A stretch of 64,000 bases of DNA from Podarcis vaucheri (Eukaryota). The translations under genes and the position numbers were made by a program. The first letter of the stretch is position 1. Every line of letters starts with the position of its first letter. This document shows, piece after piece, positions 1,916 through 54,904 of the stretch. The stretch lies in assembly GCA_965113315.1 (NCBI GenBank), contig OZ220371.1; one strand, given 5' to 3'. The notes under the pieces were generated by a model. It was given only the letters and a program-made list of their open reading frames with translations, was not told the origin of the DNA and did no database searches.

Positions 1916-3281
1916 TATTTCTACACTTCCTTCCCTCCAAGACCCTCAAGACTGTGTACATTCTCCCCACTGCCCCATTTTTTCCTTGTTTGGAGGATTT
2001 GAACTTGGGTGACCCCACTCTTAGTCTGACTGCCTAACAACTGCACCACTCTGGTTTGAAGGAAAAGTCATCTTAGAGATCAGAATTTGCTTCTCCTATG
2101 CTTAGGCTGCTGTTGGAAATGGAAATCAACTCTACAGGTATTGAGCTCCCCTAGGTATTAGTGCAGAGGAGAGCCATGCTCACTCACCCCCTTCTTTCTG
2201 CTAGCCAGCCCCACCTTTGGAAATGGAGAGATCTGGTGGAGGGAGCTTGGTTCCTGTGCACTTTTTAACCCTGATTAAATCACACAGGGAGCCTATCAGG
2301 ATAGACTAGTTTTCTGTATACCCGAAGGAGCGTCTCCACCCCCATCATCCAGCCTGGTACGGTGAGTTGCTCAACCTCCAAATAGGGATTGAATCTATTT
2401 ATTTTTAGTTTGCAGTGTGGCTATGCCCATGGATCTACAGCAGCAGTTTCTGGACTTCACATGTTTCCATTTGGCTTGCCTGCATAACCCAAAATATAGT
2501 CTCTCCATTGGGTGGGTGGGAGATTTAATCGCATTTTGGTAAATTCAGTGTGCACAATCATATTTGATTGAGAGGTCTTACACAACAAATCTACTTCCCC
2601 CAAAAGATCAGATGTTGCGGGGAGAAGAAAAGTTAAGGAGGAAATGCACTGAGAAGTATGGGATAATGCTGGCTTTGATGCAACTGTGTCTAATCTCCCT
2701 ACAAACAAATCAGAATGATTTTTCAATAAGCAGGTCATCTAGAAGCACCCCCAAGTTCCATTCCATTGCCTTGGAAAGCACCCACCTCAAGAAACCATGG
2801 CCAGTAAGTAATGACTGAAATATCCACATGTGCTAAATATTTGCTTATATTCCTGGCTGTTTTTATTGTGACAGCTGTGTTTATTGTTTTCTTTCTCATT
2901 TTCTTTCTTTCTGCATTTCATAATTCCATTGTTTAGTTACTCTAGTGCACCTTGGTAGAAATGGGAGGGATTTCCTGTTTACGTTTGTGATTTGAAAGCC
3001 AATAAAAGATTATTGCAACCCTTCCCCACCAAAAAACAAAAGCAAAAAAACAAAAACCAGCGAATGAATCTTTGAACAAAGCAGCTCAGTTGTTTTTAAA
3101 AGCATTTAGCATGGCTTTGCAGCACAAGGTGACAGCAGAGGTTCCTGCATGGATGTGTGCTGCAAGGGCTTCTGAATGCATCAAAAGAATTTAAAGCAAG
3201 GCATCTGATGGATGGGAAGGACAATTCCTCCCTCCTTATCTTGAAAGAGAATAGCGCACTATTAGCACTTGAAAGAGAATA

Positions 3282-3499
3282 CAGTGGTACCTCGGGTTAC
3301 ATACGCTTCAGGTTACAGATTCTGCTAACCCAGAAATAGTATCTCAGGTTAAGAACTTCGCTTCAGGATGAGAACAGAAATTGTGCAGTGGCGGCAGCGG
3401 GAGGCCCCATTTGCTAAAGTGGTGCCTCAGGTTAAGAATAGCTTTGGATTAAGAACAGACCTCCGGAACGAATTAAGTTCTTAACCCGAGGTACCACTG
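3282..3499. mobile_element. Tc1/mariner MITE, family A
   Basis: TA-CAGTGGTACCTCGGGTTA...TAACCCGAGGTACCACTG-TA. Confidence 0.92.
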
Positions 3500-4411
3500 T
3501 AGAGCCTCCCAGACATGTGGAAGGACCCAGCAAAGGAAAAAAAAAGTGATTAGGATTAAGATTTCTTGGAGAATTACATAAGAATTTAATAGAACCCTGG
3601 TGAATCAGGCTAATGGCCCATCAGAACCATTACTACTTCCAAGTGTGGAGGCAGAGTATTGACTCGTCAAGTGGGATTCCAACTTTCCCCACATTTTGCC
3701 ATTCTCCAAATGTTACAGTGCACTTTTCAGCAGTTTCACAATGCATGTCTATGCATGCTTATTCAGCCTATTCAGTTCCACCAAGTTCAGTGGGAGTCTC
3801 TCCCAAGTAAATGGGTATATAGCTCAAAGGGCAAAGATATTTTTGTTTGCTAAAATTGTATCCTACCTTTTCACCAAACGGTGATGAAGTAGGCTAACAG
3901 CCGTAGAATACAAAATGTCAAAAACTTAAAAAGAGCTAGTAAAATTCATCAGTAACGAAAACAGCTGTCAGTTAAGTTGCAATGTATTTACAGAAGCCAT
4001 CACAAATCTGCTTATGAAGTGAAAGGCCGGTCTGAATATAAATGTCTCTATAGTGATGGCTCTGAACATTATCCAAATACACCTCAGAAAATGAATCTGG
4101 GCAGTTTTGAAAGGCTTGTTTCATTTAATCCAGACACTTTTATGCAAAGCACTATACAACTTCAGAATACGTGACATCATTGTGATGTCAGATGATCAAC
4201 ATTTAGGCAGCCCTGCCCAGCTGTCAAACTTGCCCTGTGTGTAGTAGGGAATTTAAGAACCCAGTTTCCTTACCCTACTTTAACCAAACAATATGCTGGA
4301 TCCTAATTCTTCATATCCCTCAAATTAGGTCTGCCGGTATCCATTTTTTGTTTGGTTTATCATTTTTTAGATAGATATCATTTTTTTAGATGCCTATAAT
4401 GTTGCTAACAG

Positions 4412-6830: not shown

Positions 6831-6868
<38 letters not shown>
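6831..6868. repeat. (AT)n microsatellite, left flank of the Penelope-like element
   Basis: Seen directly. Confidence 0.98.
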
Positions 6869-6871
<3 letters not shown>

Positions 6872-6920
6872 GGTTTTGGTGTCTTCGGGTGTCTTCCCGT
6901 GTAAGAGTCGGGGTGTCTGT

Positions 6921-6959
6921 GCGACGTTTCGACGAGGTCTCACTCGTCATCTTCAGGCT
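6921..6959 (-). ncRNA. Minimal hammerhead-ribozyme-like motif (left-arm copy)
   Basis: Exact reverse complement of 8501-8539. Confidence 0.65.
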
Positions 6960-7648
6960 GGTGCTTTCGGCTTCTTGTTACTGGAACAGAGCAGAATCTG
7001 GTGTTTGAGTTCCTATAAATACTGTTGAGGGGTGTGGTGTATAGCCTCCAACGTTCTGGGCAGAGAGGAAGTTCCTAGATTAGTGTGCCTCTTCTTCTTT
7101 TGTTCCTTAATTACTTGAGGGATATCTTGAGTGATTTCATGAGTGATATTCTGAATACCACTGGGTGGGTCATTAAGTGTAGATTAGTTGCTAAAGCTTT
7201 TGTGTCTTGACCTCTTGAGCTTGTGAAGAGTTTTTCTGAGAAGATGGCTGTGCTGCATTTAGTTGTGCTCTGGCTTGGCTTCATGTATAGGGGCGAGCTG
7301 TGGTTTTGTGCCTTGTGCCAGCCAGATCTGTGTAGGGATTGCAGGGGGGTGCAGCATCCGGAGGTGCCACTATAGTTTGGCTATTGGATGGAGTCTGTAA
7401 TATGTCTGTGGAGAGGGTCTGGGTTTGGGTCTGGTGTGGTTGATTGGTGACGGCGTTCTGTGTGCCTCTGGTTCTGGTGTCGGTTTTTGTGGGGAGGGCT
7501 AATTTCCAGATGTCTGGCAGGCGGGACGTGTCGTCACGCTTGTTCATGATTATTCTCTTGTGGTGATGTTCCATGTTAAAGAGCAATTTGGAATCTGCAA
7601 AATTAATTTCGTGTCCTGTTTCTTTCATGTGTTGGAAAAGAGAGGAAG

Positions 7649-8269
7649 TTGGAAAACCAAGGGGTCTATGAAATACCCTGCAAAGTCTGCCCAGCCACGT
7701 ACATTGGACAAACAAACAGACGAATAAATGCACGTATCGCAGAACACAAGAATGCCGTCAAAAAAGAAGAAAAAACTTCCTCTCTTTTCCAACACATGAA
7801 AGAAACAGGACACGAAATTAATTTTGCAGATTCCAAATTGCTCTTTAACATGGAACATCACCACAAGAGAATAATCATGGAAGCCATCGAGATAGAGAAA
7901 CACCCTCACAACATGAACAAGCGTGACGACACGTCCCGCCTGCCAGACATCTGGAAATTAGCCCTCCCCACAAAAACCGACACCAGAACCAGAGGCACAC
8001 AGAACGCCGTCACCAATCAACCACACCAGACCCAAACCCAGACCCTCTCCACAGACATATTACAGACTCCATCCAATAGCCAAACTATAGTGGCACCTCC
8101 GGATGCTGCACCCCCCTGCAATCCCTACACAGATCTGGCTGGCACAAGGCACAAAACCACAGCTCGCCCCTATACACGAAGCCAAGCCAGAGCACAACTA
8201 AATGCAGCACAGCCATCTTCTCAGAAAAACTCTTCACAAGCTCAAGAGGTCAAGACACAAAAGCTTTAG
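7649..8269 (+). pseudogene. C-terminal fragment of the PLE polyprotein: GIY-YIG endonuclease plus low-complexity tail, RT absent
   Basis: GVYEIPCKVCPATYIGQTNRRINARIAEH, SSLFQHMKETGH and EAIEI...NMNKRDD match PLE GIY-YIG motifs; no true ATG start. Confidence 0.9.
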
Positions 8270-8500
8270 CAACTAATCTACACTTAATGACCCACCCAGT
8301 GGTATTCAGAATATCACTCATGAAATCACTCAAGATATCCCTCAAGTAATTAAGGAACAAAAGAAGAAGAGGCACACTAATCTAGGAACTTCCTCTCTGC
8401 CCAGAACGTTGGAGGCTATACACCACACCCCTCAACAGTATTTATAGGAACTCAAACACCAGATTCTGCTCTGTTCCAGTAACAAGAAGCCGAAAGCACC

Positions 8501-8539
8501 AGCCTGAAGATGACGAGTGAGACCTCGTCGAAACGTCGC
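8501..8539 (+). ncRNA. Minimal type I hammerhead-ribozyme-like motif in the PLE pLTR
   Basis: CTGAAGA (8504-8510), T, stem II GACGAG/CTCGTC with 6-nt loop, GAAA (8530-8533), CGTC with palindromic ACGT; stem I only 2 bp. Confidence 0.65.
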
Positions 8540-8619
8540 ACAGACACCCCGACTCTTACACGGGAAGACACCCGAAGACACCAAAACCTGCATTCCTGTA
8601 CCCGTGAAAATCTACGAAA

Positions 8620-8621
<2 letters not shown>

Positions 8622-8672
<51 letters not shown>
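8622..8672. repeat. (AT)n microsatellite, right flank of the PLE
   Basis: Seen directly. Confidence 0.98.
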
Positions 8673-21892: not shown

Positions 21893-24800
21893 ATGGCTCT
21901 GCAATTCCTTAGTTGGAATTGTAATGGACTTAATGGGCCTTTGAAGAGAAGACAAGTGTTCCATATTTTGAACAGAGAACAACTGGACTTGATATGTCTA
22001 CAAGAAACTCACATAACTAGAGCCCATAGGAGACTACTTACAAATAAAAGACTAGGACAAGAATTTATTGCATCAGATAAAGTTAAGAAAAGAGGAGTTG
22101 TAATATATGTGAAAGAGAAATGGGCTCCAAAAATGATATTTAAAGATGAACAAGGGAGATATCTGGCAGTGGAGATACAAGTACAAGGAGAAAAATTTTT
22201 AGTTGTTGGAATCTATGCACCAAATGAAGGCAAATCTGACTTTTTTAAGAGACTCCATGAAACCCTGATGGACTATTTGGATTACAATATGATAATCATG
22301 GGAGACATGAATGGTGTGGTCTCCACTAACATGGACAAGGCACAAAGACTAACAGTCAGCAAGGAAGGGAGACTTCCTAAGACTTTTTTCGAAATGATGG
22401 AAAACATGGACTTGATAGATATATGGAGAACAAGGAACCCTCTGGAGAGAGAGGGAACCTTTTTCTCTCAAGCAATGATGACCTGGACCAGAATTGATCA
22501 AATTTGGATTACTAGTGGTATGGCTCCAAAGGTTAAGAAGGTGGAAATCTGCCCAAAAACTTGCTCCGACCATAATGCCGTGAGGATGGAGATGAAACTT
22601 ACAACAACTGGTCAATTCAGATGGAGAATGAATGACACCCTCTTTCGAGATAAGGAGATCCTTATGAAGGCCCAAAAAACTCTAAAAGACTACTTTGAAA
22701 TAAATTTGAGGGCCGACGTGGAAAAAAGAGTGATCTGGGACGCAAGTAAAGCGGTGATGAGAGGCTTTTTGATTCAACAAAATTCAATAAAGAGAAAAAA
22801 ACAAAATGAGAAAAAAGAAAAGATTTTGGAAAAGATAAAGGAAGGAGAGAAAAAATTAAGAACAAAACCAAAGTCCCAGGAGATTTTAAGAGAGATTAAG
22901 TTATATCAAACACAATATATGGAATTGATGAACCAAGAGATTGAATGGAAGATAAAACAAATGAAACAAAAGACATTTGAATCAGCAAATAAATGTGGCA
23001 AACTTCTGGCATGGCAATTGAAGAAAAGGCAGAAATTAAATACGGTTACAAGCCTAGAAGTGGATGGAAAGAATATATCTAAACCTAATGAAATTAGAAA
23101 CTGTTTTTTGAGTTATTTTAAAAAGCTATATACTCAAGGCCCGCAAAATGAAGAAGATATAGATAAATTCCTTGATAAATATGGATTACAAAAAATCTCT
23201 CATCAAAGTAAGATGGATCTGAACCAGAGAATAACAGAACAAGAGATAGAGGCTGCCATTCAGAACATGCAACTGGGCAAATCTCCAGGACCAGATGGAC
23301 TGACTTCCAGATATTACAAATCGTTGAAGGAATGGTTGATTCAACCACTAAAAGAAGTTTGCAATGAGATCCTTGAGGGAAAGAGGGCACCTGAATCGTG
23401 GAAAGAAGCATATATTTCACTCATACCAAAGACAGAGACTGAAAAGACTCAACTGAAGAACTACCGCCCAATATCGCTACTTAATGTGGATTATAAAATT
23501 TTTGCAGATATTTTGGCAAAAAGATTTAAAAGAGTGTTGATGGAAAGGATTCATAAGAACCAAGCAGGCTTTCTCCCTAAAAGACACCTGGCAGACAATG
23601 TAAGGAATGTAATAGACATTTTAGAAAAGCTAGAGGTGAATATAAACACTAAAGCAGTATTGATTTTTGTGGATGCGGAGAAAGCCTTTGACAATATTTC
23701 TTGGAGCTTTATGATAAAGAACCTTCATGGGATGGGGGTAGGCCAAGGTTTTGAGAATGGTATGGCTGCAATATATTCTGAACAAAAGGCTAAATTGATT
23801 GTAAACAACGTAGTAACTGAGGAACTTAAGATAGAAAAAGGAACACGACAAGGGTGCCCAATTTCCCCATTACTTTTTATCTCAGTCCTGGAGGTGTTGC
23901 TGAATATGATAAGGAATGACCAGCAGGTTAAAGGAGTGCAGGTCGGAGCTAAACATTACAAGTTAAGAGCGTTTGCAGATGACTTAGTACTGACTTTACA
24001 AGAGCCAATCACTAGTACGAAAAAGGTTTTAGAAATAATACAACAGTTTGGCCAGGTAGCTGGATTTAAGTTGAATAAACAAAAAACCAAAGTTTTAGGA
24101 AAAAACTTAACAGACATAGAAAAGGAGAAATTCCAAGAAGAAACAGGGCTGACAGTGGTTAAGAAGGTGAAATACCTAGGGGTTTATTTGACATCTAAAA
24201 ATGTGAATTTGTATAAGGACAATTATGAAAAATGTTGGTCAGAAATCAAAAAAGATCTAGAAATATGGTCAAATTTGAAATTGTCAATGTTAGGCCGAAT
24301 TGCGGTGATTAAAATGAATGTATTGCCTAGAATGCTATTTTTGTTTCAGACCTTGCAGATTCTTGACAAGATGGAATGTTTCAAGAGGTGGCAGAAAGAT
24401 ATCTCGAAATTTGTCTGGCAGGGCAAAAAGCCCAGAATTAAATTTAAAATATTGACAGATGCAAAAGAAAGAGGGGGTTTTGCCCTGCCGGACTTAAAAT
24501 TGTACTATGAGGCAGCAGCTTTTTGCTGGCTGAAAGAATGGATGCTCCTCGAGAATACGGACATTTTGGATCTGGAGGGTTTTAACAATGCTTTTGGCTG
24601 GCATGCATATCTATGGTATGACAAAGTTAATAGTATCTTTAAAAATCATATTGTTAGAAAAGCACTATATAATGTTTGGATAAGATATAAAGACCTGTTG
24701 GAAAACAAAACCCCTAGATGGGTGTCACCAGTGGAGGCTAAAGCAGTGAAGAAACTCAATATGGAGGTCGGATGGCCGAAGTATTGGGAAATTTTGGAAC

Positions 24801-25624
24801 AGGATGGAGATAAGTTTAAACTACAAAGCCAGGAGAAATTGAAACACAAAGTACAAAATTGGTTTCAATATCGCCAAATAATGGAGTTTTTTAAACAGGA
24901 TAGGAAAATTGGCTTCCAGGTGGAAAAATCAAAACTAGAAACTGAGTTATTAGAACCCAATACTAAGAATTTATCTAGAATGTATAACTTGTTGCTGAAA
25001 TGGAGTACACAGGACGAAACAGTCAAATCGGCTATGATTAAGTGGGCACAGGATGTTGGGCACAATATCATGTCAGCTGACTGGAAATGGTTATGGAACA
25101 CTGGTATTAAATTCACGGCATGTAATGCCTTAAAGGAAAATATTATGAAAATGGTTTACAGGTGGTACATGACTCCAGTCAAGCTGGCAAAAATTTACCA
25201 TTTGCCCGATAATAAATGTTGGAAATGTAGAGAGACTGAAGGCACCTTCTACCACCTCTGGTGGACGTGCCCGAAGATTAAGGCTTTCTGGGAAATGATC
25301 TATAATGAAATGAAAAAGGTACTTAAATGTACTTTTCCTAAAAAGCCAGAGGCCTTTCTCTTGGGCATTGTCGGCCAAGTGGTGTTAAAAAGGGATAGAA
25401 CTTTTTTTATGTATGCTACAACAGCAGCAAGAATACTCATCGCGAAGTATTGGAAGACACAAGATCTACCCACTCTGGAAGAATGGCAGATGAAAGTGAT
25501 GGACTATATGACATTGGCTGAGATGACAGGCAGAATCCGTGACCAACGAAAGGAGACGGTGGAAGAAGATTGGAGAAAATTTAAAAGCTATCTTAAGGAC
25601 TATTATAAACTCAATGAATGTTAA
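21893..25624 (+). CDS. L1 ORF2p (APE endonuclease, reverse transcriptase, CCHC knuckle), 1243 aa
   Basis: SWNCNGL, LQETH, GDMN, RIDQIW, SDH; KSPGPDG, YRPISLLNVDYKI, DAEKAFD, GTRQGCPISP, FADD, KYLG; CWKC-x8-H-x4-C. Confidence 0.97.
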   Translation: MALQFLSWNCNGLNGPLKRRQVFHILNREQLDLICLQETHITRAHRRLLTNKRLGQEFIASDKVKKRGVVIYVKEKWAPKMIFKDEQGRYLAVEIQVQGEKFLVVGIYAPNEGKSDFFKRLHETLMDYLDYNMIIMGDMNGVVSTNMDKAQRLTVSKEGRLPKTFFEMMENMDLIDIWRTRNPLEREGTFFSQAMMTWTRIDQIWITSGMAPKVKKVEICPKTCSDHNAVRMEMKLTTTGQFRWRMNDTLFRDKEILMKAQKTLKDYFEINLRADVEKRVIWDASKAVMRGFLIQQNSIKRKKQNEKKEKILEKIKEGEKKLRTKPKSQEILREIKLYQTQYMELMNQEIEWKIKQMKQKTFESANKCGKLLAWQLKKRQKLNTVTSLEVDGKNISKPNEIRNCFLSYFKKLYTQGPQNEEDIDKFLDKYGLQKISHQSKMDLNQRITEQEIEAAIQNMQLGKSPGPDGLTSRYYKSLKEWLIQPLKEVCNEILEGKRAPESWKEAYISLIPKTETEKTQLKNYRPISLLNVDYKIFADILAKRFKRVLMERIHKNQAGFLPKRHLADNVRNVIDILEKLEVNINTKAVLIFVDAEKAFDNISWSFMIKNLHGMGVGQGFENGMAAIYSEQKAKLIVNNVVTEELKIEKGTRQGCPISPLLFISVLEVLLNMIRNDQQVKGVQVGAKHYKLRAFADDLVLTLQEPITSTKKVLEIIQQFGQVAGFKLNKQKTKVLGKNLTDIEKEKFQEETGLTVVKKVKYLGVYLTSKNVNLYKDNYEKCWSEIKKDLEIWSNLKLSMLGRIAVIKMNVLPRMLFLFQTLQILDKMECFKRWQKDISKFVWQGKKPRIKFKILTDAKERGGFALPDLKLYYEAAAFCWLKEWMLLENTDILDLEGFNNAFGWHAYLWYDKVNSIFKNHIVRKALYNVWIRYKDLLENKTPRWVSPVEAKAVKKLNMEVGWPKYWEILEQDGDKFKLQSQEKLKHKVQNWFQYRQIMEFFKQDRKIGFQVEKSKLETELLEPNTKNLSRMYNLLLKWSTQDETVKSAMIKWAQDVGHNIMSADWKWLWNTGIKFTACNALKENIMKMVYRWYMTPVKLAKIYHLPDNKCWKCRETEGTFYHLWWTCPKIKAFWEMIYNEMKKVLKCTFPKKPEAFLLGIVGQVVLKRDRTFFMYATTAARILIAKYWKTQDLPTLEEWQMKVMDYMTLAEMTGRIRDQRKETVEEDWRKFKSYLKDYYKLNEC

Positions 25625-26400: not shown

Positions 26401-28094
26401 ATAGTTAAAAAAAGTGGAGGAGTTCTCAGAGTAATGTACAAAAATAATTTCTGAGGTGGTTCTTGCCATCAGACTCAGAATATTAAAAAAATACATGGCA
26501 CTTAAGGAAAAAGGAATAGGAGAGAAGAGGGAGAAAGCACGCTTGAGCACAAGTTCTTAATTATACTGCTTAAAGCCCATGGCTGCTCTGTCCCTACAGT
26601 CCGAGGCAGTATTTCTTGAATATCAGTCACTTGAAACTGCAGGAGTAGAAATTGCCTGCTTGTAGGTTTCCCGCAGGTAACTTGGTTGGCCACTGTGAGA
26701 ACATGATGTTGTACTAGATCCAGGATGTCTTCTAAGGCTCTTGAGAAAAAGCAGTCCCATCCCTGACGCACTCTTTCCTCTCCCACCCAACACTGGATCG
26801 AAGAGCAGAGCTGGAGACAACATCCAGGCCAGGAGGACAGGATAACTCCAGTCCTACAATTCTTATAGTGACAAACTGAGTAGAAAATGTATTTGTCAAG
26901 TGCTCACTGAGCATGGGTGTGAGAAATCATATATTTTTTTCTCTCATTGGAACTGTTAATCAACTTTTGCACTGATCTTCTGTCAGTGTTTTTTGGCCAT
27001 AGCCACACCTAACCAATAGTAATGACTCTGGAAATAGCTCACATCCACACATAGCAGTAAAACATGACCTTGGCATTAACTATGTAAATTAAAGCCAATG
27101 GTTTTGGCATTATTTAAATACAGTAAACCCTTCTCACAGCTGTACTCATGAGGAGAATATAAAATTTATCTGCAACTGAATGATGCCTAGAATAGAAATG
27201 GACAAAAATAGATTTTTTTTAATTACAAGGGGGATGGAGGGGGGGTCATAAATCATGTCCGCAGTGAGAAAGGGCCTGCATAAGCTGGAAAGATGCATAA
27301 AAAGTAGTTTACAGGATTTAATTAGGTGTGTCAGAATTATTCTTATGGGAGTGAGCATCAGATAATATGAGGGTGGTTTTTATATATATTTTTTAAAAAA
27401 ATCTGTGTTACAAATGCATGAAGAATGTGTAGGGGAAAGAATCGATATAATGAAATATAACTTAATATATTTAATAGAGGTTAACATTTGTAAATGTGTA
27501 ACATTTGTAAAATTTGTAAATGAGGATGTGAAGCATGGAACAGGAATAGAATCAAAGCAAAACAAGCCAGGAAAGGAAAACCATGTTTAAGCACTGCCCA
27601 ATGAATGCTGCAGAATGGGACTTAGGCTTCATTCAAACGTCCATTTATTCCATTTCCCCAATGTTTTCCCAGCTGTTAATTACATGATGTAAAAGCCACT
27701 TCCATAAAACTAATGGAATATAGCCCATGTTTAGCACTCCTTTTAGTGTTGTTTGATGATGGGGGAAAGTCCATTTGCATTCCCCTTAACCTGGAAGATT
27801 GTGGGAGTAAAGTGATGAAATTTAGGGCATATATACTGGCATATATTTCTTTCCTGCTGTTTTCATGGGGGGGGGGTCATAGGAGTACAGAAGCAGACAT
27901 CTGCAGAAAGGGTGGGGAAGTAGGGACATTGTCCAGTGACATCTGTTCTGTGTCACACAGAACCCTCAGCTGTGAATGGAATTTTGTCTGACATGCCGGT
28001 ACGTTGGTCAAAAAGTCACAGTCCCATAACGCAACAGCTACTGCAGTGGGAGAGAAGCATTAGAAAATGGAACAAAAGTGCTGGCATTATAATA

Positions 28095-28336
28095 CAGTGG
28101 TACCTCGGGTTACAGGTGATTCAGATTACAGACGCTTCAGGTTACAGATTCCGCTAACCCAGAAGTAGTACCTCGGGTTAAGAACTTTGCTTCAGGATGA
28201 GAACAGAAATCACACGGCGGCGGCGCGGCGACACTGGGAGGCCCCATTAGCTAAAGTGGTACCTCAGGTTAAGAACGGTTTCAGGTTAAGAACGGACCTC
28301 CAGAATGAATTAAGTTCTTAACCCGAGGTACCACTG
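28095..28336. mobile_element. Tc1/mariner MITE, family A
   Basis: TA-CAGTGGTACCTCGGGTTA...TAACCCGAGGTACCACTG-TA. Confidence 0.92.
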
Positions 28337-29027
28337 TATTCCCCATGCCTGAATGCTCGGCAGTCCTATACAGTGTGCATACAATATACACAATTATAGT
28401 ATACACACTTACATTTTGAGGTAATACACTGTGGCAGCGCCTAAGTGGGGAAACTCTCTCCCCACATCTGACACCTTCCTTATGCAGCAGTCAGCAAATG
28501 TTGAAGACCTATCTGTTCACCCTGGCTTTGGACACTTGAGATTTTTACAACCCACTTTTTTGAAATCTTAAGTTGTTTTGAACTGCTTTTACTATTGTTT
28601 AATATTGTGTTTTGATATTAATTAGAGGGGAGGGGGTAATAAATTGTAATATCTAGATCTGTGTGTTTGTGTACAGCAGAGTTCTCTTTAAGAGTTGGAG
28701 TACACAGGAATGAGATTCTGGAGTGTGTGGCCTATGGCAGGAATGAGCCTCTTTAGTATCGAGCTTTTTTAATGGAATAATTGGTTAGTTTATTAGTTAA
28801 AGTACACAGCTAATTGAGTAGAAAAAAAATCTTTAAGCCTTTGAAAGCCTCCATGCACATGGGAGCAGGAAGGTACCAGGAGTGAAATCCAAATCAGATC
28901 ACAACCTTGCATAGATTTCAGCCAAGGAGTGAAGGAAAGAGAAGGCATTAAGTTGAGGAGAATGAAATATCCTTAAGCCCTTTACCCAACGAAAATATTT
29001 GCTGGCTCATGGAAAGATGTTCTAGGG

Positions 29028-33422: not shown

Positions 33423-34007
33423 CAGACCCTCCAAGTGTCCCTATTTTCCAAGGACCGTCCCGGATTTACAGAAACATTGCGGTTTCTGATTCGATCCTGG
33501 AATGTCCTGCTTTTCCTTCGGATGTCCCTATTTTCATTGGAGAAATGTTGAAGGCTATGGAGTTATATAACCCCTGACTCAAGGAGATAAGAAACTATGC
33601 AACCTTTTGAAGACATTTGAAGGCAGCCCTGTGCAGTGGTACCTCAGGTTAAGTACTTAATTCGTTCTGGAGGCCTGTTCTTAACCTGAAACTGTTCTTA
33701 ACCTGAAGCACCACTGCTGCGCGATTTCTGTTCTCATCCTGAAGCAAAGTTCTTAACCCGAGGTACTATTTCTGGGTTAGCGGACTCTGTAACCTGAAGC
33801 GTCTGTAACCTGAAGCTTCTGTAACCTGAGGTACCACTGTATAGGCAAATTTCTTAAAATGTTTAATTATGTTTTTATATATGTTGGAAGCCACACAGAG
33901 TGGTTGGGGCAACCCAGTCAGATGGGCGAGGTATAAATATTATTATTATTATTATTATTATGGAATAGGACGTCCCTATTTTCATCAGAAAAATGTTGGA
34001 GGGTATG
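33423..34007. mobile_element. Composite non-autonomous DNA element with CATACCCTCCAA-type TIRs
   Basis: CAGACCCTCCAA...TTGGAGGGTATG; flanks CAATAT / CAATAC; internal GTCCCTATTTTC repeats. Confidence 0.6.
33634..33839. mobile_element. Tc1/mariner MITE, family A, nested in the previous element
   Basis: CAGTGGTACCTCAGGTT...AACCTGAGGTACCACTG-TA; left TA mutated to TG. Confidence 0.88.
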
Positions 34008-44079: not shown

Positions 44080-45293
44080 AACATCAGTGGAATACTCTAC
44101 CCAGGAAAACCCACATGGCATCAGTTTTGCCCTACTTTTTTTAGTCTATGTTTTTAATAAGTTTATTTATTTATATTACTGTATTTTATTCTTGTTGTCA
44201 GTCACTTTGGAACTTTTTTGTTGTAGAAACAATTATTTATAAACAGCCTAACCTTCCTTTCTTCCTCCAATTTCACAAAGGTGGTGGCTTTTTGGCTTCC
44301 TACCATTTTCTGTTTAGAGTTTATTTTCAGAATTTAGCACAAATCTTTTGCATGTTTACTCAAAAGGATGTCTCACTGTGTTCAGTCAGGCCTATTCCCT
44401 AGTAAGAGAGTTCAGGATTGTAGGCTTTAGACTTAGTTTATTTAAGTAACTCAGCAGCTGCCGCTACTGACTAGTCTTAGTGAGGAGATCCCTAAATGGG
44501 TTCTAGCCTTACCAAAATTATGCACATATTTAGAATCCCTTGCCCTTTGGCTTCCATGGGAATAGATGGAGGTCCATAATGGACCATTCTTCAGTGGAAA
44601 GATTCTGCCCATCAACTTGGGGAGGCACCCACCTCAAATATTTTATGGGGGGCCTCAGCCCCTAGGAGTTGGCTTCTATGAGAGTTAGCATCCCATTTGC
44701 TGCAGTTTAGATCCAGAAGCACATCCCAAGTGGCTGCTTTTTGTCAAAAGCCTAAGTGCTCAGGGTTAAGTTTGGTTTTTCAGAAATGTGCTTGACATGG
44801 CATCAGTTTGACCCAGCATTAAATTTAAGGAAGTAAAGACAGTAGTTGTTTTGAATCTTTACACAAGGAAAAAAATGAGTTGCTGTTTAGATACCACAGA
44901 TAACAGTCAACAATCCTCTGAGGGTGAATTCAAACTGCTGGAGAATCACAGCACCTGCTGTGGCTGCAGAGACCAAGCTTGACATCTATCTTAATGTTTC
45001 TTAATGCACCTCAGAAGGGGAAGCAGATCTTTGGGGGCAACTAGAGAAGCAGGCATCCTTCATATCTACACCTTGAACTACTGATTGTCAATGAATACTC
45101 CAGTTGTAATATTTCATACTGCTTGATCATGGTTGCTGCTGTAGGATACTAATAATAATAACAGCTGTCATCAGTCATGCAGATCCAAATGCACTCAGAT
45201 TCCTGGATGTATTCAGTGCCTATGCAGGACCCATCGTTGATTTCAATAGAAAAACCAATTCTCACATACTAAGTTATGCACTGTACATATGTA

Positions 45294-45535
45294 CAGTTGT
45301 ACCTCGGGTTAAGTACTTAATTCATTCCGGAGGTCCATTCTTAACCTGAAACTGTTCTTAACCTGAAGCACCACTTTAGCTAATGGGGCCTCCTGTTGCT
45401 GCCACACTGCTGGAGCACGATTTCTGTTCTCATCCTGAAGCAAAGTTCTTAACCCAAGGTACTATTTCTGAGTTGGCGGAGTCTGTAACCTAAAGTGTAT
45501 GTAACCTGAAGCGTATGTAACCCGAGGTATCACTG
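45294..45535. mobile_element. Tc1/mariner MITE, family A
   Basis: TA-CAGTTGTACCTCGGG...CCCGAGGTATCACTG-TA. Confidence 0.9.
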
Positions 45536-47396
45536 TACTGGTTCCTTCAAAATAAAAGCTGTCCCAGACATAGGGTATATATTTGGAGGCCTGATATCCT
45601 TTGCTTAGGCAAAATTTTGCATTGCTTTATGGCCGTACTGTTGGACAGTTACAACAGTCAATTGTGCACTTGTGGCTCTATGTCTAAAGTTGTCACCAAG
45701 ACAGGCATATGACCAAAGTTTTCCCCATCCATGAATTCCCATCTACGTAATTGAAATGCCAGCAGTATTCTGGTACAACAATAAAAAGAATTCTCATTTC
45801 ACAGCCCAAATGTAGGCTATAAATCCACTCTCCATTCTTCAAATTCAATCTTCATTTACTGTGAGCGAAGGCTGTTAAATGTTGCATCCATACATTTCAT
45901 TCTTGAGTAGCTTCTTTCTTTGGGGGGACCTACATTCATTGTTCTTTTTATTAAGCTGTTGATCTTTTGCAAATATACACTGAAAATAACTAATTACTCC
46001 TGCATGAATTTTTTTTTTAAGGAAAAACTCCCAAAATATTGGTTGTAGATACAGAAATCCAGAGAATGTTTTTAGAGGCATGTTCAGGCTTATGTAGCGG
46101 GGCTTTCTTCCTATTCTTGGTTGTGTGTTAGAACCCCCCCCCCCCCATTTATATTACACAGCATTGAGGAGGGATAAAAATACTGAGGACAGGAACTGGC
46201 CCCCAGCAAATCTTGTGAACAAATTGGTAACATCTTTGCTTCTTCCAAAAGCCACCACAAGGGGATCGCCAAGAGCCCTCTCTGCTTCTAGCAGCAATAT
46301 GTACTGAGGAAACCGACAAACATAATTGTAGTATGTACTGTTAGCACTAGGTTCCTAGAATAAGTAAGCAACTTCAGAACAGAACATTCTTAACTGCAGA
46401 GCATTTAATTATTCACTTATCATACAGATGAAACACCCATGGGGACCATACCAATAAAGCAAGAATGTCTGAGCGCAAATCAATATCCACGATGAAGCTA
46501 TCAATATGTTACTTCTTAATTTGTTCTGCTAATAACTTCAAAGGTCACCTTTTTAACAGGCCTACCATAAAATTGCAAGAATAGAAGTACAGATATTAAA
46601 AAATCGGCACTTAGAATATTTTATATTCAATTACATTACCAAATAAAGCTGTCTTATGGAGTAGAGTCAGGTGAATTTTGCGTCTTTCCCCCAATATTTT
46701 ATTATTATTTTTTTACTCAACTTGGATAGAAGAGAAAATGGTAGCAAACTGAATCCTTCTAGAAGGCAGGTAGCTTGTCTGCATGGTGGCTGTATGGGGC
46801 ATCTATCATCATAGACAATCTACTTTTGAGTACCATTTTTTAAAAAAGGGGGGAAATAGCGGTGATAGTATTGACCTCATATCCAGCTTGTGGGCTTCCT
46901 TGAGACATCTTGTTGACCACTTTGAGAAGCAGGAGGCTGGACTAGATGGACCTTTCATCCAATCCAGCTGGGTTTGTTGTGTTAAGGAACTCAAAGCTTC
47001 CACACACATAATCCAGATTCTACACTGGGAATAAAAGTCACATGCCATTTTTTTTTCTTCAGCACTCAGACTTACTATACATGATATCAGGGATCTCCAC
47101 AATATACTTATAATAGTCCATAAAAACTCATTAATTCAATCTGGTTGCAATACAGAGGGTATCATTAGGGTGGTAAGATTCAGCAAGGAAGGGAAATATG
47201 GATTGGAGGGAGAGAATAAAGGAAGTAAAACTCATTATGTGCCACCTACTACAAAAATTGGTTGCTTTGTGGCTTGCCTGGTTTGACTTCTCCCTTGAAA
47301 TCCACTCTGTTTTCCCTCCTGTATTGACTACTCCAAGACACCCAGCCTCGGGTCATGATTTGTGCAAACTGTTTGCATACCTCTAATTAAATCTAA

Positions 47397-48425: not shown

Positions 48426-50093
48426 TATTATTTTGGCAACGGCACATGTGGATATTGGCATTTAGTGGTTGTTTTGATCATGGCCATAGAAAGAGGGGGG
48501 GGCGGGAAGATGCATCAATTAAGGGTCCTTCCTCTAAGAATGTTAATGTTTACTCAGGAGCTGGTGGACAGAGTTCTATGAAACTCAAAACTCATTAAAC
48601 GAACTCTTTTAAATGTAACTGGTCAAGCAGAAGCGATCACCTAAACTGTTTTACAATTTATTTAACTTCTTTGGACAGACACACTCTTTTTACTGAATAC
48701 TAATTCCAGCTAGATAGCAATGTATTGCTTTTTCTAATGCTTAAATTGGCATGAACAGAACACCAGCCACTGTATAAACTATGGCATGTTGCTTTGTGGG
48801 GAGAGTTGGAATACCGCTTTTCCTGCTTAGTAACCACCAAGATTTGATTTTATTCCACTGTAAATTAATCCATCCATTTGTTTGGTGGCACTGCAAAAAA
48901 ACCTCCATTGTACTTTAGAGCCTGTAAATTCTTATATCTGAAAACAACCAAACATATTAGCGTTACCCTTGGTGATGTACAAAAGGTAGAGAAAACTCAA
49001 ATGGATTTTTGAGGGGGGGCCCGGGGCTGTAAAATAAGACTTTGACATTCCCATACACTAAATAAGCACATAAGCACTACAATGATATGAATTTCTTGGC
49101 CTGAAACGGTGTTATATTTCAAGGGGATTAGAGTTTTCACCTCCTGGGTAGCTGCAGGAAAACGGTAAAATAAACCCTTTTGAGACATATGGAGATTTGA
49201 ACACAATCAATACTGACAGGTTTCACATCTACAAATTTATAGCTTGATCCACAACATTGTTAAGCTTGAATACTAGAATATGAACCCATTTTTGTTCCAT
49301 TGGCTTCAAGTTCAACTTAAATCCAAGTATTTGGCCATAAGTGAGTCATGGATGTAGCTGTCTATAAAGTGGAAATGAAAAGCACTTCATTTTATTCAGT
49401 CCCAAACTCAAGTGTACCAGCAGGCAGCCCTGAAGACAAGGAGCTGTTGTCTCTGGGCTACTGACTACACCTCTCCTCCCTTCAGCAATACACATTGCTA
49501 TCATTCACACTCTTAAGTGTTAATTTCCTCTCATTTAATTGCCTGCCCAGCAAATTAGCACTCTGAGTCTCTCTGGTGATGTTGCTACCTGGAAATGTGC
49601 AGTTAAGGCTTCTCCAGGAAATGTGTTGCCTTAGATCAACTGTGCCGTTTACACTTTGTGCAAAACAGGATCATGTTCTGGAGATTTGTAAAAATTAAGA
49701 GAGGGGAGTCATGGGGGGCGGGGAGAGAGAGGAGGAGAGAGGACAGTGTGTTCCAATAACAGAACAAAATACTTGCACATATAAAGATCACTGCTGGATA
49801 AAAAGATTTAGGAGTCTCAAGCTTCCAAAGGTGGTTTCAGGGCGATCGTCAAGGGTTGGTACTGTTGGGGACCTGCCAAGCCCCTTTGGCCTCACGATTC
49901 CTCTTTCTTTGCTCTCGTGATCTGCTCAAGGGGGAGGGCAAAGGAATAGGCAACATTGGCAGCAGCAGGTCCAGTAGAGTGGACTGGGGGTGGGCAGGAA
50001 TAAGCCTCAAGCTCAAAGGGAACACTTACTAATTTTTTTGGCATTTGATGACTTCCACAAATTGTTTCTTTGCAATTAGACCAAAATTTGACA

Positions 50094-50237
50094 NNNNNNN
50101 NNNNNNNNNNNNNNNNNNNNNNNNNNNNNNNNNNNNNNNNNNNNNNNNNNNNNNNNNNNNNNNNNNNNNNNNNNNNNNNNNNNNNNNNNNNNNNNNNNNN
50201 NNNNNNNNNNNNNNNNNNNNNNNNNNNNNNNNNNNNN
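50094..50237. other. Assembly gap (144 N)
   Basis: Run of N. Confidence 1.
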
Positions 50238-50961
50238 TTAGTGCCTTATCCCCCACACATGCTCTGTTTTTTTTTATTATTATGACTAGAGCTGGAAGTG
50301 GCCCAGGTTTCTCTGGACATTGTGAGATGGCCTGGGCAGCAGTGAAGAGGAGGTGTGCCAAGTCAAGGAAGGGACTCACTGAGAGCATCTTGACTCAGGC
50401 CAGCACCCCTCCCCTCCTGCAAACAACAAACAAACAAACAAGCAAACAGAGCCAGTATTGGTGTGGTGGATGCAGTGAATGAAGAGTCTGAGTCTATCTT
50501 TATTGTGCTTTATGCTGTCTTTCCATGGTGAGCTGTGTCCAAAGTGGTCATCCAGTTGGGAGGTGGAAACCAGCTTACAAATCATATATCCACAAATTCA
50601 AGTAGGACAAAATGTACAATTCCACAAACATAGAATAAATTCTATGTTATGCAGAAATAATCTAGCTCAGAACAAACTGAAAGTTAACAGACAATAGATA
50701 AATACATAAATGCAGTTTGGACAGGAATGGGATACTTCTCACCAAAATAGCTGATTTGCAGCTGGCTCCCTCACCTCCAGAGGAAGCTGCCATTGCAAAG
50801 GGCAATGATGGTGAATTCTCTTCCTCAGCCTCCTGGATGTGCCAGTTATGAGTGCTGATCAGATTGGGACACAAGAGAACTTAATTGCATAGCCTATTCT
50901 CTGTATGTAGAGAGACTTGCTGGAAGCCGGCAACCCACTTCAGATGGGCTGCATGTAAGTA

Positions 50962-51294
50962 CAGTGGTGCCTTGCAAGACGAAAAGAATCCGTTCTGTGA
51001 TTATCTTCGTCTAGCGGTTTTTTCGTCTTGCGAAGCAAGCCCATTGAAGGATTAGTGGATTAGCGCTATTAGCGGCTTTTAGAGGCTTTTAGCGGCTTAT
51101 CTGCTGATCGGATTAGCTGATAAGCGGCTTAGAAAAAGGGGGGAGGGGAAAAAAACAGCAGGAACTCGCAAGACATCGTCGTCTTGCGAAGCAAGCCCAT
51201 AGGAAATTCGTTTTGCGAAGCACCTCCAAAACGGAAAACTTTCGTCTAGCGAGTTTTCTGTCTTGCGAGGCATTCGTCTTGTGGGGCACCACTG
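50962..51294. mobile_element. Tc1/mariner MITE, family C
   Basis: TA-CAGTGGTGCCTTGCAAGACGAA...TTCGTCTTGTGGGGCACCACTG; internal TCGTCTTGCG repeats. Confidence 0.85.

Positions 51295-51295
<1 letters not shown>

Positions 51296-51347
<52 letters not shown>
51296..51347. repeat. (TTA)n microsatellite
   Basis: Seen directly. Confidence 0.95.
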
Positions 51348-51649
51348 GAGATCCTCTGAAGTAGATTAAGCCTACCAAATTGCAGACAAGTAAGTCCATG
51401 GATCTTTTTGTGAGGGAATAAAAGGGATTCCCTTTCCTCCATTATCCTTTATCCTAAGAGAGGGGCTGGGATTTTTCTTATGTTAAACTGAGGCGGCTGA
51501 CTAGTGTGTATTTTTGCTTGTCCTGTTTAAAAACTTTGCAGCTTCACACTACCCTCTCTTTCTGATGATTGTGTTCTCCAGTAGGCTTCCTGATAGGCCT
51601 TCATAGGACCTCATAGCCCTTATAATGTGAGGGTATTTAGAACACTTAT

Positions 51650-52013
51650 GGGACGCGGGTGGCGCTGTGGGTTAAAGCCTCAGCGCCTAGGGCTTGCCGA
51701 TCGAAAGGTCGGCAGTTCGAATCCCCGCGGCGGGGTGCGCTCCCGCTGCTCGGTCCCAGCGCCTGCCAACCTAGCAGTTCGAAAGCACCCCCGGGTGCAA
51801 GTAGATAAATAGGTACCGCTTACCAGCGGGAAGGTAAACGGCGTTCCGTGTGCTGTGCTGGCTTGCCAGATGCAGCTTTGTCACGCTGGCCACGTGACCC
51901 GGAAGTGTCTCCGGACAGCGCTGGCCCCCGGCCTCTTGAGTGAGATGGGCGCACAAACCCCAGAGTCTGTCAAGACTGGCCCGTTCGGGAAGGGGTACCT
52001 TTACCTTTACCTT
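51650..52013 (+). mobile_element. Young full-length Sauria SINE
   Basis: CpG-rich; GGGACGCGGGTGGCGCTGTGG start, B box GTTCGAATCC, (ACCTTT)n tail, 13-bp TSD TATTTAGAACACT (51634-51646, 52014-52026). Confidence 0.95.
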
Positions 52014-53126
52014 TATTTAGAACACTACCTGCTGAGCTTTGGGTGTTTTTTGTTGCTGTTAAAGCTGAGCAACATAGGCTTGTTTTTTTAACTTAATTAG
52101 GTGTTTATCTTTAAAAACAAAGCTGCGCTTTAAAAACAACAATCCAGAGCTCTTCAGTACTCCATAGACAATATTTTTGACAGCCTCATTTCTTGTAGAA
52201 CCCATGGATCTAGAGAAACATGGAGATATTATAAAGGGGAAAACAGACCTGTATCAATACAGAAAAGTGAGCAATAACACTCTGTAGTTTTGAGAGGCAG
52301 GTTTATTGACATCCCCAAATCCCCTTGATACTTAGACACCACACATTGCTGATGCACAGCCTATTAGAATTTTTCAATGGAATCCCTGATCTGGACCCTC
52401 TGTAGAAATAAATGAGCTTCCACCCCAAGAATGAGTTTCCAAGCTTTACTGTAGAACAGTCTTAAATACTAGTTACAAAAGATATGGGTTTCAGGAAAAA
52501 AATACAAAGTAACACATTACACTCAAGTAGCAGGCAATGCTGTTCAGTCAGTCCTTTGTGCAGTTCAGTAAACTTTCCTCTCTCTGATCCAAGAGAGACA
52601 TCCCAAGCTTGTTCATCACTGCAGAGCTTAGTTTCACCTGCCACTGCTACTGCTAGCCCTCACTGACTGCTCAGGTTTCCCCTCCTGCTGTGAAAAACAC
52701 CAGCCTTCTGCTTTCACCTAGAGTGGAACCTCTTGCTTAAGATAAATTTATCTGCCTTGCAAATGCAGAAAGGGGAGGGGGCTTTTACAGAAGTTTTAAC
52801 GTCAATGCATTATAGTTTATGCATATTCAATTTAAAACTTTAGCATACTCTGCATATTGTATATTGCATATTTCCCCATGAAAAAGAGAAGGGCAGAAAA
52901 CCAGAGAGGGTAAGTAGAACTGCTGAAGTTTATGGAACATTTGCAGTTAGATCATATTGTGCCACACATGAAACAGGGAATGAGAAAAGAAGAAAGAGGG
53001 TGTTGTGCATTACAACATGAAATCTGGCTCTCTTGCTGCTGGCTTGGCCTAAAGGAGAAGTTGGGTCTGATAAACACAGGCATTTTGCTTGCTCTTTCAT
53101 TCAAAGGTGGGAATATAATTTTTATA

Positions 53127-53367
53127 CAGTAGTACCTCGGGTTACATACGCTTCAGGTTACATACGCTTCAGGTTACAGACTCTGCTGACCCAGAAATAG
53201 TACCTCGGGTTAAGAACGTTGCTTCAGGATGAGAACAGAAATCGTGCTCCGGCGGCACAGCAGCACGGGAGGCCCCATTAGCTAAAGTGGTGCTTCAGGT
53301 TAAGAACAGTTTCAGGTTAAGAACGGACCTCCGGAATGAATTAAGTACTTAACCCGAGGTACCACTG
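53127..53367. mobile_element. Tc1/mariner MITE, family A
   Basis: TA-CAGTAGTACCTCGGGTTA...TAACCCGAGGTACCACTG-TA. Confidence 0.92.
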
Positions 53368-54904
53368 TATAAATAAAATACAATGCACAAATCCTGGAAA
53401 TGTATGGCTACCACTGATTTTAAAAACAGCAATATGGTATCATCTGCCTTATGCTTAGTCCTTCCTCCAGTTGTCTTTTTGACACCAGTGGGACAAAATC
53501 AGCCTTGAGCCAAGCACCCACACTTGACAGGCCGTGGAGCAGGGTGCATGTGTGCAAAGAGGCCTTCTTTCCCCCCCTGCTCCCTACAAAGCCCCATTTC
53601 TTCATTAGCTCCCTTGCCAGCTGGCTGCCCTCCAAGATTCAGCAGAAGCAACTTAGTCCTAACGCTGTTCTAGGCACAGCTGCAGTGGGATTCATCTTGT
53701 CAGCACTCATGAAAGAACGAAGTGAACTGAGATGACAATTTAACAATATTGTGCCGTCAACCATTTGGTGCCTTCCAACCTAGGCTGGCACAATTTTTAA
53801 CAGCTATAATTCACATGCTTAGACTTTGCACGGGTGATAGAATCGGGAGTGTTTCCAGGTGAAATAATTGTAACTAGTGCTATCTTTACATTTGACTTTT
53901 CCACTTTCATGTATGTAATGCAGATTCCAAGTCCTGATAGAAGGGGAGTACACTACTCTAGCTCTGTGCTATAGTAGCCCCTTTCCTCTGCTACCTTTAG
54001 CTGGTACATTTTAATTTTCTGAAGGAGCCAGAAGATTGAAACCTTCTCCCAGCCCATCCTGCATACAAGGCAGATGCTGGGAAGCCAAGGGAAGTAATTA
54101 TGCCCCTTCCGTTCACCATATTGACCCTGCTTAGCATTAACTTTTATGTGTAATTAATGCTTGTAGATCAGTCAGGCTCAAGTTTTGAAGTGAAATTTTA
54201 TCTGATTGCAGGCATTACTAATGCTAACCTGATCCTTATCTGTTGAAAGAAAAAAAGCAGCTCTTAACAGGCATGCACAGCCCTTTTTACGACTGCACAT
54301 ACCTTACTGGAAATTACAAAAAGGCCCATTGTGCGAAATAGATACTAAATGGACATTTGAAGTTACAAGGACATATTTGCACTTTCAGTTAGTCCGATCG
54401 GTGCATTCTGTTAAATTGCACTTTGTTCGAAAAAGTCTATAAAGATAAATGTTTGACTACAATATTTGAAAACACTTTTCCTATCTAGGTCTTTATCCTT
54501 TGGCCCAGAAAACATCTCAGTGATGAAAATATTCTGGAAGAGAGATTGTATCTTGATGCAACCATTGCTAAACATTTCAATGCCTAGCGGTGCCAAATCT
54601 TTCACAATCTGTAGTGTTTTAGCACCCCCCTCCCTCGAACACAAGTATCATCTTTGTTCATAATGCCGTATTCTGTCTTTAGTCCAAGATGTTAAGCCAC
54701 TTGAAAAAAAGAAAGAAAGAAAAACTCACTTCCAGGAAGTTTGAACTGGCTGCTTTCCCAAAGGATTGCAGGAGAGTGCCAACATTTCCCATTCTGCTAA
54801 CTCAAAATGTGCCAGTGTTCAAGTTTAAAAACAAATGTAAAGCAGGAACTTTTTAATATATGTGCCAAAGGGGGAGTTAGTTGAGCAGTTAATGCCCATT
54901 ATGA

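Follow-up and report, generated by a model that had tools for sequence, protein, structure and literature searches.

How a transposable element comes to carry a long mirror image of itself is the question raised by a palindrome of ~1.75 kb in the lizard Podarcis vaucheri (GenBank assembly GCA_965113315.1, contig OZ220371.1), located in a window of 64,000 nucleotides that comprises the whole stretch of DNA analysed here. The formation of inverted copies has been named as an open question for Penelope-like elements (PLEs) (PMC8557442, PMC3846280), and the ends and the centre of this insert likely record how its mirror half was built. The locus itself is of little weight, being a single dead member of an abundant family, in an already published arrangement. 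Its value is that of a test case: a young copy that retains both ends, source-specific alleles, and a junction scar.

Structure of the palindrome

A preliminary description, made from the letters alone, had proposed two reverse-complement arms around a 123-nt spacer, and these hold exactly: the left arm (6867 to 7650, 784 nt) is the reverse complement of the right arm (7774 to 8593, 820 nt), apart from one 36-nt deletion and one C/T change, the same two differences that had been counted by eye. The deletion is in frame and affects the left arm; its right-arm equivalent is 7876 to 7911, which can be slid to 7880 to 7915, with a 4-nt CATG microhomology. The other difference is a CpG change, with C8177 in the right arm versus T7283 in the left. 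T7283 is private to the left arm; among the family sequences of runs X1 and X2 (see below), there is no place with C>T at 2% or more. The (TA)n tracts noted earlier on both sides measure (TA)19 and (TA)25.5 and mask any target site duplication. The 1-kb flanks are unrelated to each other (best blastn E value, 0.45), and no second copy of the Penelope family was found inside the window. The features of the insert are listed in Table 1.

Table 1. Features of the insert and its (TA)n target, with positions in the 64-kb window
Feature	Positions	Strand	Basis
Left half of (TA)n target; its final AT is common to the end of the left arm	6831..6868	.	
Inverted 5'-truncated copy; terminus is the tail-less 3' end of the family (equivalent to 8593)	6867..7650	-	
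Minimal hammerhead core, left copy	6923..6956	-	Pattern match
TATA-like box, putative, pointing to the centre; mirror of 8439-8446	7014..7021	+	
CpG transition, left arm only	7283	.	
Place of 36-nt in-frame deletion, CATG microhomology	7545..7548	-	
Central junction: 9-nt direct repeat; T7650 common to both copies	7631..7656	+	
Sense 5'-truncated copy: ORF 3' end, 3' UTR/pseudo-LTR, and tail; without reverse transcriptase	7650..8621	+	
Spacer of 123 nt, start of GIY-YIG domain, longer copy only	7651..7773	+	
TATA-like box, putative, readable both ways, ~65 nt before ATG	8439..8446	.	
Minimal hammerhead, right copy	8504..8537	+	Pattern match and fold
Tail of 28 nt, confined to right end; terminus at +112 to +116 from ATG	8594..8621	+	
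Right half of (TA)n target	8622..8672	.	

Identity of the element

The spacer and the right arm encode the 3' end of an open reading frame (ORF), with the start of a GIY-YIG domain in the spacer and a stop codon at 8267 to 8269. The GIY-YIG match in the window (E value, 2e-4; 22.1 bits) falls just below the Pfam cutoff of 22.6, and the best relative, P0001, is a 735-amino-acid (aa) protein attributed by name to Podarcis muralis; it is 94% identical across 92% of the query and combines an RVT_1 domain (residues 152 to 330) and a GIY-YIG domain (residues 499 to 538) in one ORF. These two matches bear out the earlier assignment of the locus to a PLE with an inverted, 5'-truncated copy. In the translation, two Cys residues lie between GVY and YIG, with two His residues further on, an arrangement described as a feature of endonuclease-bearing PLEs (PMC8557442). 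According to the same source, Penelope/Poseidon elements are set apart from Neptune, Nematis, and Naiad by a C-terminal endonuclease and by the absence of an additional Cys-rich linker ahead of GIY-YIG. The relatives P0001, P0002, and P0004, inspected by eye, lack a CxxC linker on the N-terminal side of GVY, so that, by this criterion, placement in the Penelope/Poseidon clade appears to fit.

The sequence identifies the insert as a Penelope/Poseidon-type element that is truncated at its 5' end and joined there to an inverted, likewise truncated copy; a pseudo-LTR with a hammerhead, a one-sided tail, and the inverted 5' copy are all present. Reverse transcriptase (RT) is absent from the 5'-truncated sense copy, which is most likely inert. 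The preliminary description was silent on two features, the coding content of the spacer and the 28-nt tail of the right copy alone. The low-complexity end of the ORF differs between this copy and P0001/P0002, and an extra A at 8237, present in 25 of 29 RNA reads of a relative, would shift its frame.

With the canonical PLE insertions of Arkhipova et al. 2013 (PMC3846280) and Craig et al. 2021 (PMC8557442), as there described, the insert shares the head-to-head layout, 5' truncation, a tail at one end, a microsatellite target, a bidirectional TATA-like box, and a microhomology-mediated deletion. Unlike them, it has no partial tandem, its ~0.8-kb arms extend into the ORF, its tail has 28 nt versus the 30 to 40 nt quoted, and its centre is a 123-nt spacer plus a slip repeat instead of a short palindrome. 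Earlier publications already cover the head-to-head layout, a tail at one end, the choice of AT-rich targets, hammerheads on opposite strands, and small interfering RNAs (siRNAs) from Penelope inverted repeats; no description of this family in lacertids was found in the largely open-access literature searched.

The family in read data

At least half of the words of the stretch are contained in 14 of the 24 runs listed, none of the 14 being on record as RNA. Four runs were mapped on the sense copy (7649 to 8625): two contig sets from one sample of organism A, one contig set from organism B, and raw RNA reads from relative F. In X1, 1,518 of 2,011 pieces are at least 99% alike (depth sums in these data are not a copy number); the family is young and abundant. 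The element exits at 8593 into (AT)n in all four runs (6, 23, and 21 contigs and 12 reads), and exits from 8625 through AT runs appear, among the joints listed, in two of the four (X2 and X3). Both ends of the insert are therefore standard ends of the family. In X1 and X2, the loose ends that precede 7650 continue into native upstream letters, and only T7650 is common to both copies.

Among the joints listed for X2, tailed ends at 8625 are linked via AT letters to 8434, 8467, 8199, and 7871, which is consistent with the family inserting into its own AT-rich sites. Two other X2 joints, 8375/8263 (depth, 2,186) and 8350/8286 (depth, 920), stand out against depths of ~50 to 450 for most joints listed; should they be of the head-to-head kind, some palindromic units would themselves have been amplified again.

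Three alleles that are rare in the family occur on both arms: 8076A, where the other letter accounts for 100% of the depth in X1 and 99.9% in X2; 8259A, with a family share of at most 19 to 21% of depth; and 8369G, with at most 15 to 27%. Their common presence indicates that both arms derive from one template lineage. Two separate insertions, or a single insertion later symmetrised by gene conversion between the arms, would be a very improbable source of this pattern. Although the family is very abundant and prefers AT runs, including its own pseudo-LTR, as seen in the joints from 8625 into the element, the centre contains neither an AT run nor a tail, and the arms still differ by the deletion and the CpG change yet have the rare alleles in common.

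The central junction is absent among the joints and loose ends listed for the two best-matching runs, and 8076A has zero depth in X1, as could be expected of a fold-back artefact of sequencing or assembly. However, Logan contigs lose rare variants, and the X1 sample may be without the insert. With unrelated flanks, a left arm that stops, without a tail, at a family-standard end, and a deletion and a single-nucleotide change confined to that arm, an artefact is unlikely, to the point that we give it hardly any weight. The identity of the insert and its origin in one event we regard as nearly certain.

Hammerhead motifs and 3' ends

The suggestion of a hammerhead-like motif near the outer end of each arm stands, in that the core pattern occurs once in each; these are the only 2 matches in the 64 kb, compared with none in any of 100 shuffles, for a pattern composed after the motif had been seen. 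Rfam returned no hammerhead family up to an E value of 1, and a hammerhead search of metagenomes gave 0 matches. Rfam matches to microRNAs were rejected, being far below gathering scores, with the hairpin and AT runs behind them. Folded alone, the region from 8470 to 8625 is of unremarkable stability (z score, -0.65).

The right-arm motif has the core, an extra U after A9, a 6-bp helix II, CG at 15.2/16.2, and no loop 3, with the ATG at 8510 to 8512 marking the start of helix II. Helix I has just 2 adjacent Watson-Crick pairs, short of the 4 to 5 bp usual for minimal PLE hammerheads. The motif is predicted to be a minimal, dimer-type hammerhead. The metazoan PLE hammerheads of Cervera and de la Pena 2014 (PMC4209133) share with it the core, the extra base after A9, G10.1-C11.1, the long helix II, the palindromic 15.2/16.2, and the lack of loop 3; they differ in a helix I of 4 to 5 bp, whereas 2 bp are described for a D. 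virilis variant. Minimal PLE hammerheads did not cleave as monomers (PMC4209133), and one of this minimal type did not cleave without protein (PMC11167929). Opposite-strand hammerhead pairs have already been noted in Schistosoma (PMC4209133).

Relative to the ATG, the insert ends at +112 to +116 on the tailed side and at +82 to +84 on the tail-less side. This can be compared with PAc, the Poseidon element of Anolis carolinensis (Frangieh et al. 2024, PMC11167929), in which reverse transcription begins at +111 to +118 and the tail corresponds to the segment separating two RT start sites. By that published description, the two are also alike in the C-terminal GIY-YIG, the AT-rich target, the position of the ORF ATG at hammerhead helix II, and the two alternative 3' ends. 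Unlike PAc, the insert has no RT and comes from another lizard lineage. The main text on PAc does not discuss inverted copies, its sole use of "inverted" being for a dT block.

In the RNA run, depth climbs over 8474 to 8605 and loose ends cluster before 8501 to 8505, which suggests many very short copies retaining just the hammerhead end.

Origin of the inversion

The centre of the insert is bridged by a 9-nt direct repeat (7631 to 7639 and 7648 to 7656). Junction repeats of at least 9 nt arose in 36 of 21,316 simulated junctions, the simulation having been devised after the repeat had been noticed. For the 7-mer at the truncation point, the element contains a single complement (7785 to 7791), which lies 11 to 17 nt from the inversion point. 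The 9-nt repeat is the expected remnant if the last 7 nt of the longer cDNA paired there, 2 nt were added, and the product slipped by 17 nt.

For the inversion, we lean slightly toward double priming. By this route, the endonuclease would nick both strands of the AT run; the bottom strand would prime at the tail end (+112) and copy 972 nt, and the top strand would prime at the tail-less end (+84) and copy ~820 nt, both cDNAs coming from one source element. The last 7 nt of the longer cDNA would pair with the complementary 7 nt close to the terminus of the other, and the addition of 2 templated bases, a 17-nt slip, and re-pairing would leave the 9-nt repeat. Integration would have been followed by the CpG change and, possibly, by the 36-nt deletion. 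Polymerase-theta-type end joining makes templated insertions like the proposed slip. If double priming is true, head-to-head copies and the one-sided tail are explained in one step. More tentatively, and at less than even confidence, the insert might be read as the fossil of an integration in which a dimeric Penelope protein nicked both strands of an AT run and began one cDNA, on RNA of a single source, at each of the two RT starts mapped in vitro, the two 3' ends then being joined by a templated slip.

The main competitor, fold-back self-priming, is in our view rather unlikely. Here, a single tail-primed cDNA ending at 7650 would pair with its own 7785 to 7791, slip by 17 nt, and copy itself, the strand then being cut or joined at the tail-less end; the element and the inert outcome are as in double priming, reached by another route. 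The sole complement of the truncation-point 7-mer lies where this route would need it, an identical junction repeat is predicted, and a very rare allele on both arms is accounted for more simply than by double priming; self-priming has also been proposed in print for Penelope inversions (PMC3846280). However, fold-back needs an additional step to stop exactly at +84, a family-wide end that appears to fit an RT start site of the anole Poseidon (PMC11167929), and top-strand nicking and extension have been observed in vitro with the anole protein (PMC11167929).

One reason to favor double priming over fold-back is that both arms, when read from their flanks, correspond to first-strand cDNAs that begin at a standard end. 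By analogy, it is further favored by the anole protein, which nicks and extends both target strands and is a predicted dimer (PMC11167929), and by tails reported at either end of PLE insertions (PMC8557442). The choice between the two rests on one locus, which alone cannot decide it. They make differing predictions across the many copies of the family, whose copy number suffices for a census. In the largely open-access literature searched, no double-priming route for PLE inversions was found; PMC3846280 was the only paper on Penelope-like head-to-head priming, twin priming gave none, and PMC11167929 was the only relevant recent paper on PLE mechanism.

Predicted hairpin RNA

The preliminary description had envisaged a long double-stranded RNA (dsRNA) with a sense-oriented hammerhead near its 3' end. 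Folding of a transcript of the full palindrome predicts a duplex of ~780 bp on either strand (minimum free energy, -1644 kcal/mol for the plus strand and -1660 for the minus strand), with perfect stems of 416, 265, and 106 bp. The dsRNA part of the idea thus holds as a prediction, but the sense hammerhead pairs with its own antisense copy: the helix II probability in the full duplex is 0.00 on both strands versus 0.83 to 0.99 without the mirror arm, and a free 3' hammerhead in the full hairpin is rejected. A transcript starting at 7045, inside the arm and near the inward TATA-like box, has a helix II probability of 0.90. The DNA had also been called cruciform-prone. Extrusion begins at the centre, and longer spacers lower instability (PMC7999016), so the 123-nt spacer weighs against that reading, which was overstated and is dropped.

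In the RNA of relative F, 412 of 12.8 million records fall on the family, from both strands, and 55% of them continue into unlike sequence; none of the 412 can be assigned to this locus. A>G and T>C make up 55 of the 88 changed places, and C>T and G>A make up 20. The corresponding ratio is 55 to 20 in RNA and 18 to 13 in a DNA run (Fisher P = 0.17; DNA unmatched). In the family reads of relative F, the proposed A-to-I editing was accordingly not established, the excess not differing clearly from that in DNA.

That the locus is an active source of hairpin RNA, yielding endo-siRNAs or an ADAR substrate, is improbable, though compatible with either integration route. Transcription could enter by read-through from a gene on the minus strand, 4 kb away, or start at the TATA-like boxes that face inward. 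The perfect stems would suit such a role, as would a start near 7045 that leaves the 3' hammerhead unpaired, a spliced minus-strand gene model aimed at the locus (see below), the presence of family reads on both strands in the relative, and siRNAs matching Penelope inverted regions in Drosophila (PMC3681739). Set against these are the lack of any RNA read assignable to the locus, five AATAAA signals between the stop of the gene model and the insert, a substitution excess not clearly different from that in the unmatched DNA run, and an insert too young for selection to show. The spacer itself contains AATAAA at 7723 to 7728 (+), which, if used, would end plus-strand read-through before the second arm.

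The endo-siRNA idea is plausible by analogy but not new, since siRNAs from Penelope inverted repeats are known in Drosophila. The rearranged Drosophila copies (PMC3681739) resemble the insert in having long Penelope inverted repeats able to form dsRNA; their siRNAs were sequenced, whereas the insert is known from DNA and sits in a vertebrate host. Any hairpin RNA from it would be a chance by-product of read-through. Should palindromes of this kind be transcribed, they would give a reptile a natural supply of long dsRNA, and if double priming is true, every head-to-head copy that lies in transcribed DNA would be a ready source.

Surroundings of the insert

The insert is not inside any gene detected in the window, where short or noncoding exons may escape detection. 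A spliced gene model of five segments runs from 19570 to ~12760 on the minus strand and matches a 137-aa hypothetical protein of Podarcis lilfordi. Its splice sites are canonical at the exons checked, and no convincing homologue was found beyond that one Podarcis protein; the model (19570 to 12761) is perhaps a lineage-specific gene or a noncoding transcript. The Pfam scan for host genes covered 150 of 177 frames of at least 45 aa in 1 to 20600 and, with L1 left out, all 236 frames of at least 55 aa beyond 18000. It gave three weak matches, every one below the cutoff, and a TSP1 label for the gene model, which came from such a match, was dropped for this reason and for the lack of a wider homologue.

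An L1-like element (family label by eye) occupies 20659 to 25624 (+), with open frames of 409 and 1,271 aa; it is apparently intact and possibly young. A dispersed family of ~250 nt with internal 16-nt repeats is present in both orientations at 1681 to 1933, 3257 to 3504, 28086 to 28339, 33629 to 33843, 45287 to 45537, and 53118 to 53376. The observed/expected CpG ratio is 0.6 in 50001 to 52000 versus ~0.2 elsewhere, and the region from 49800 to 52000 is a possible CpG island or young repeat.
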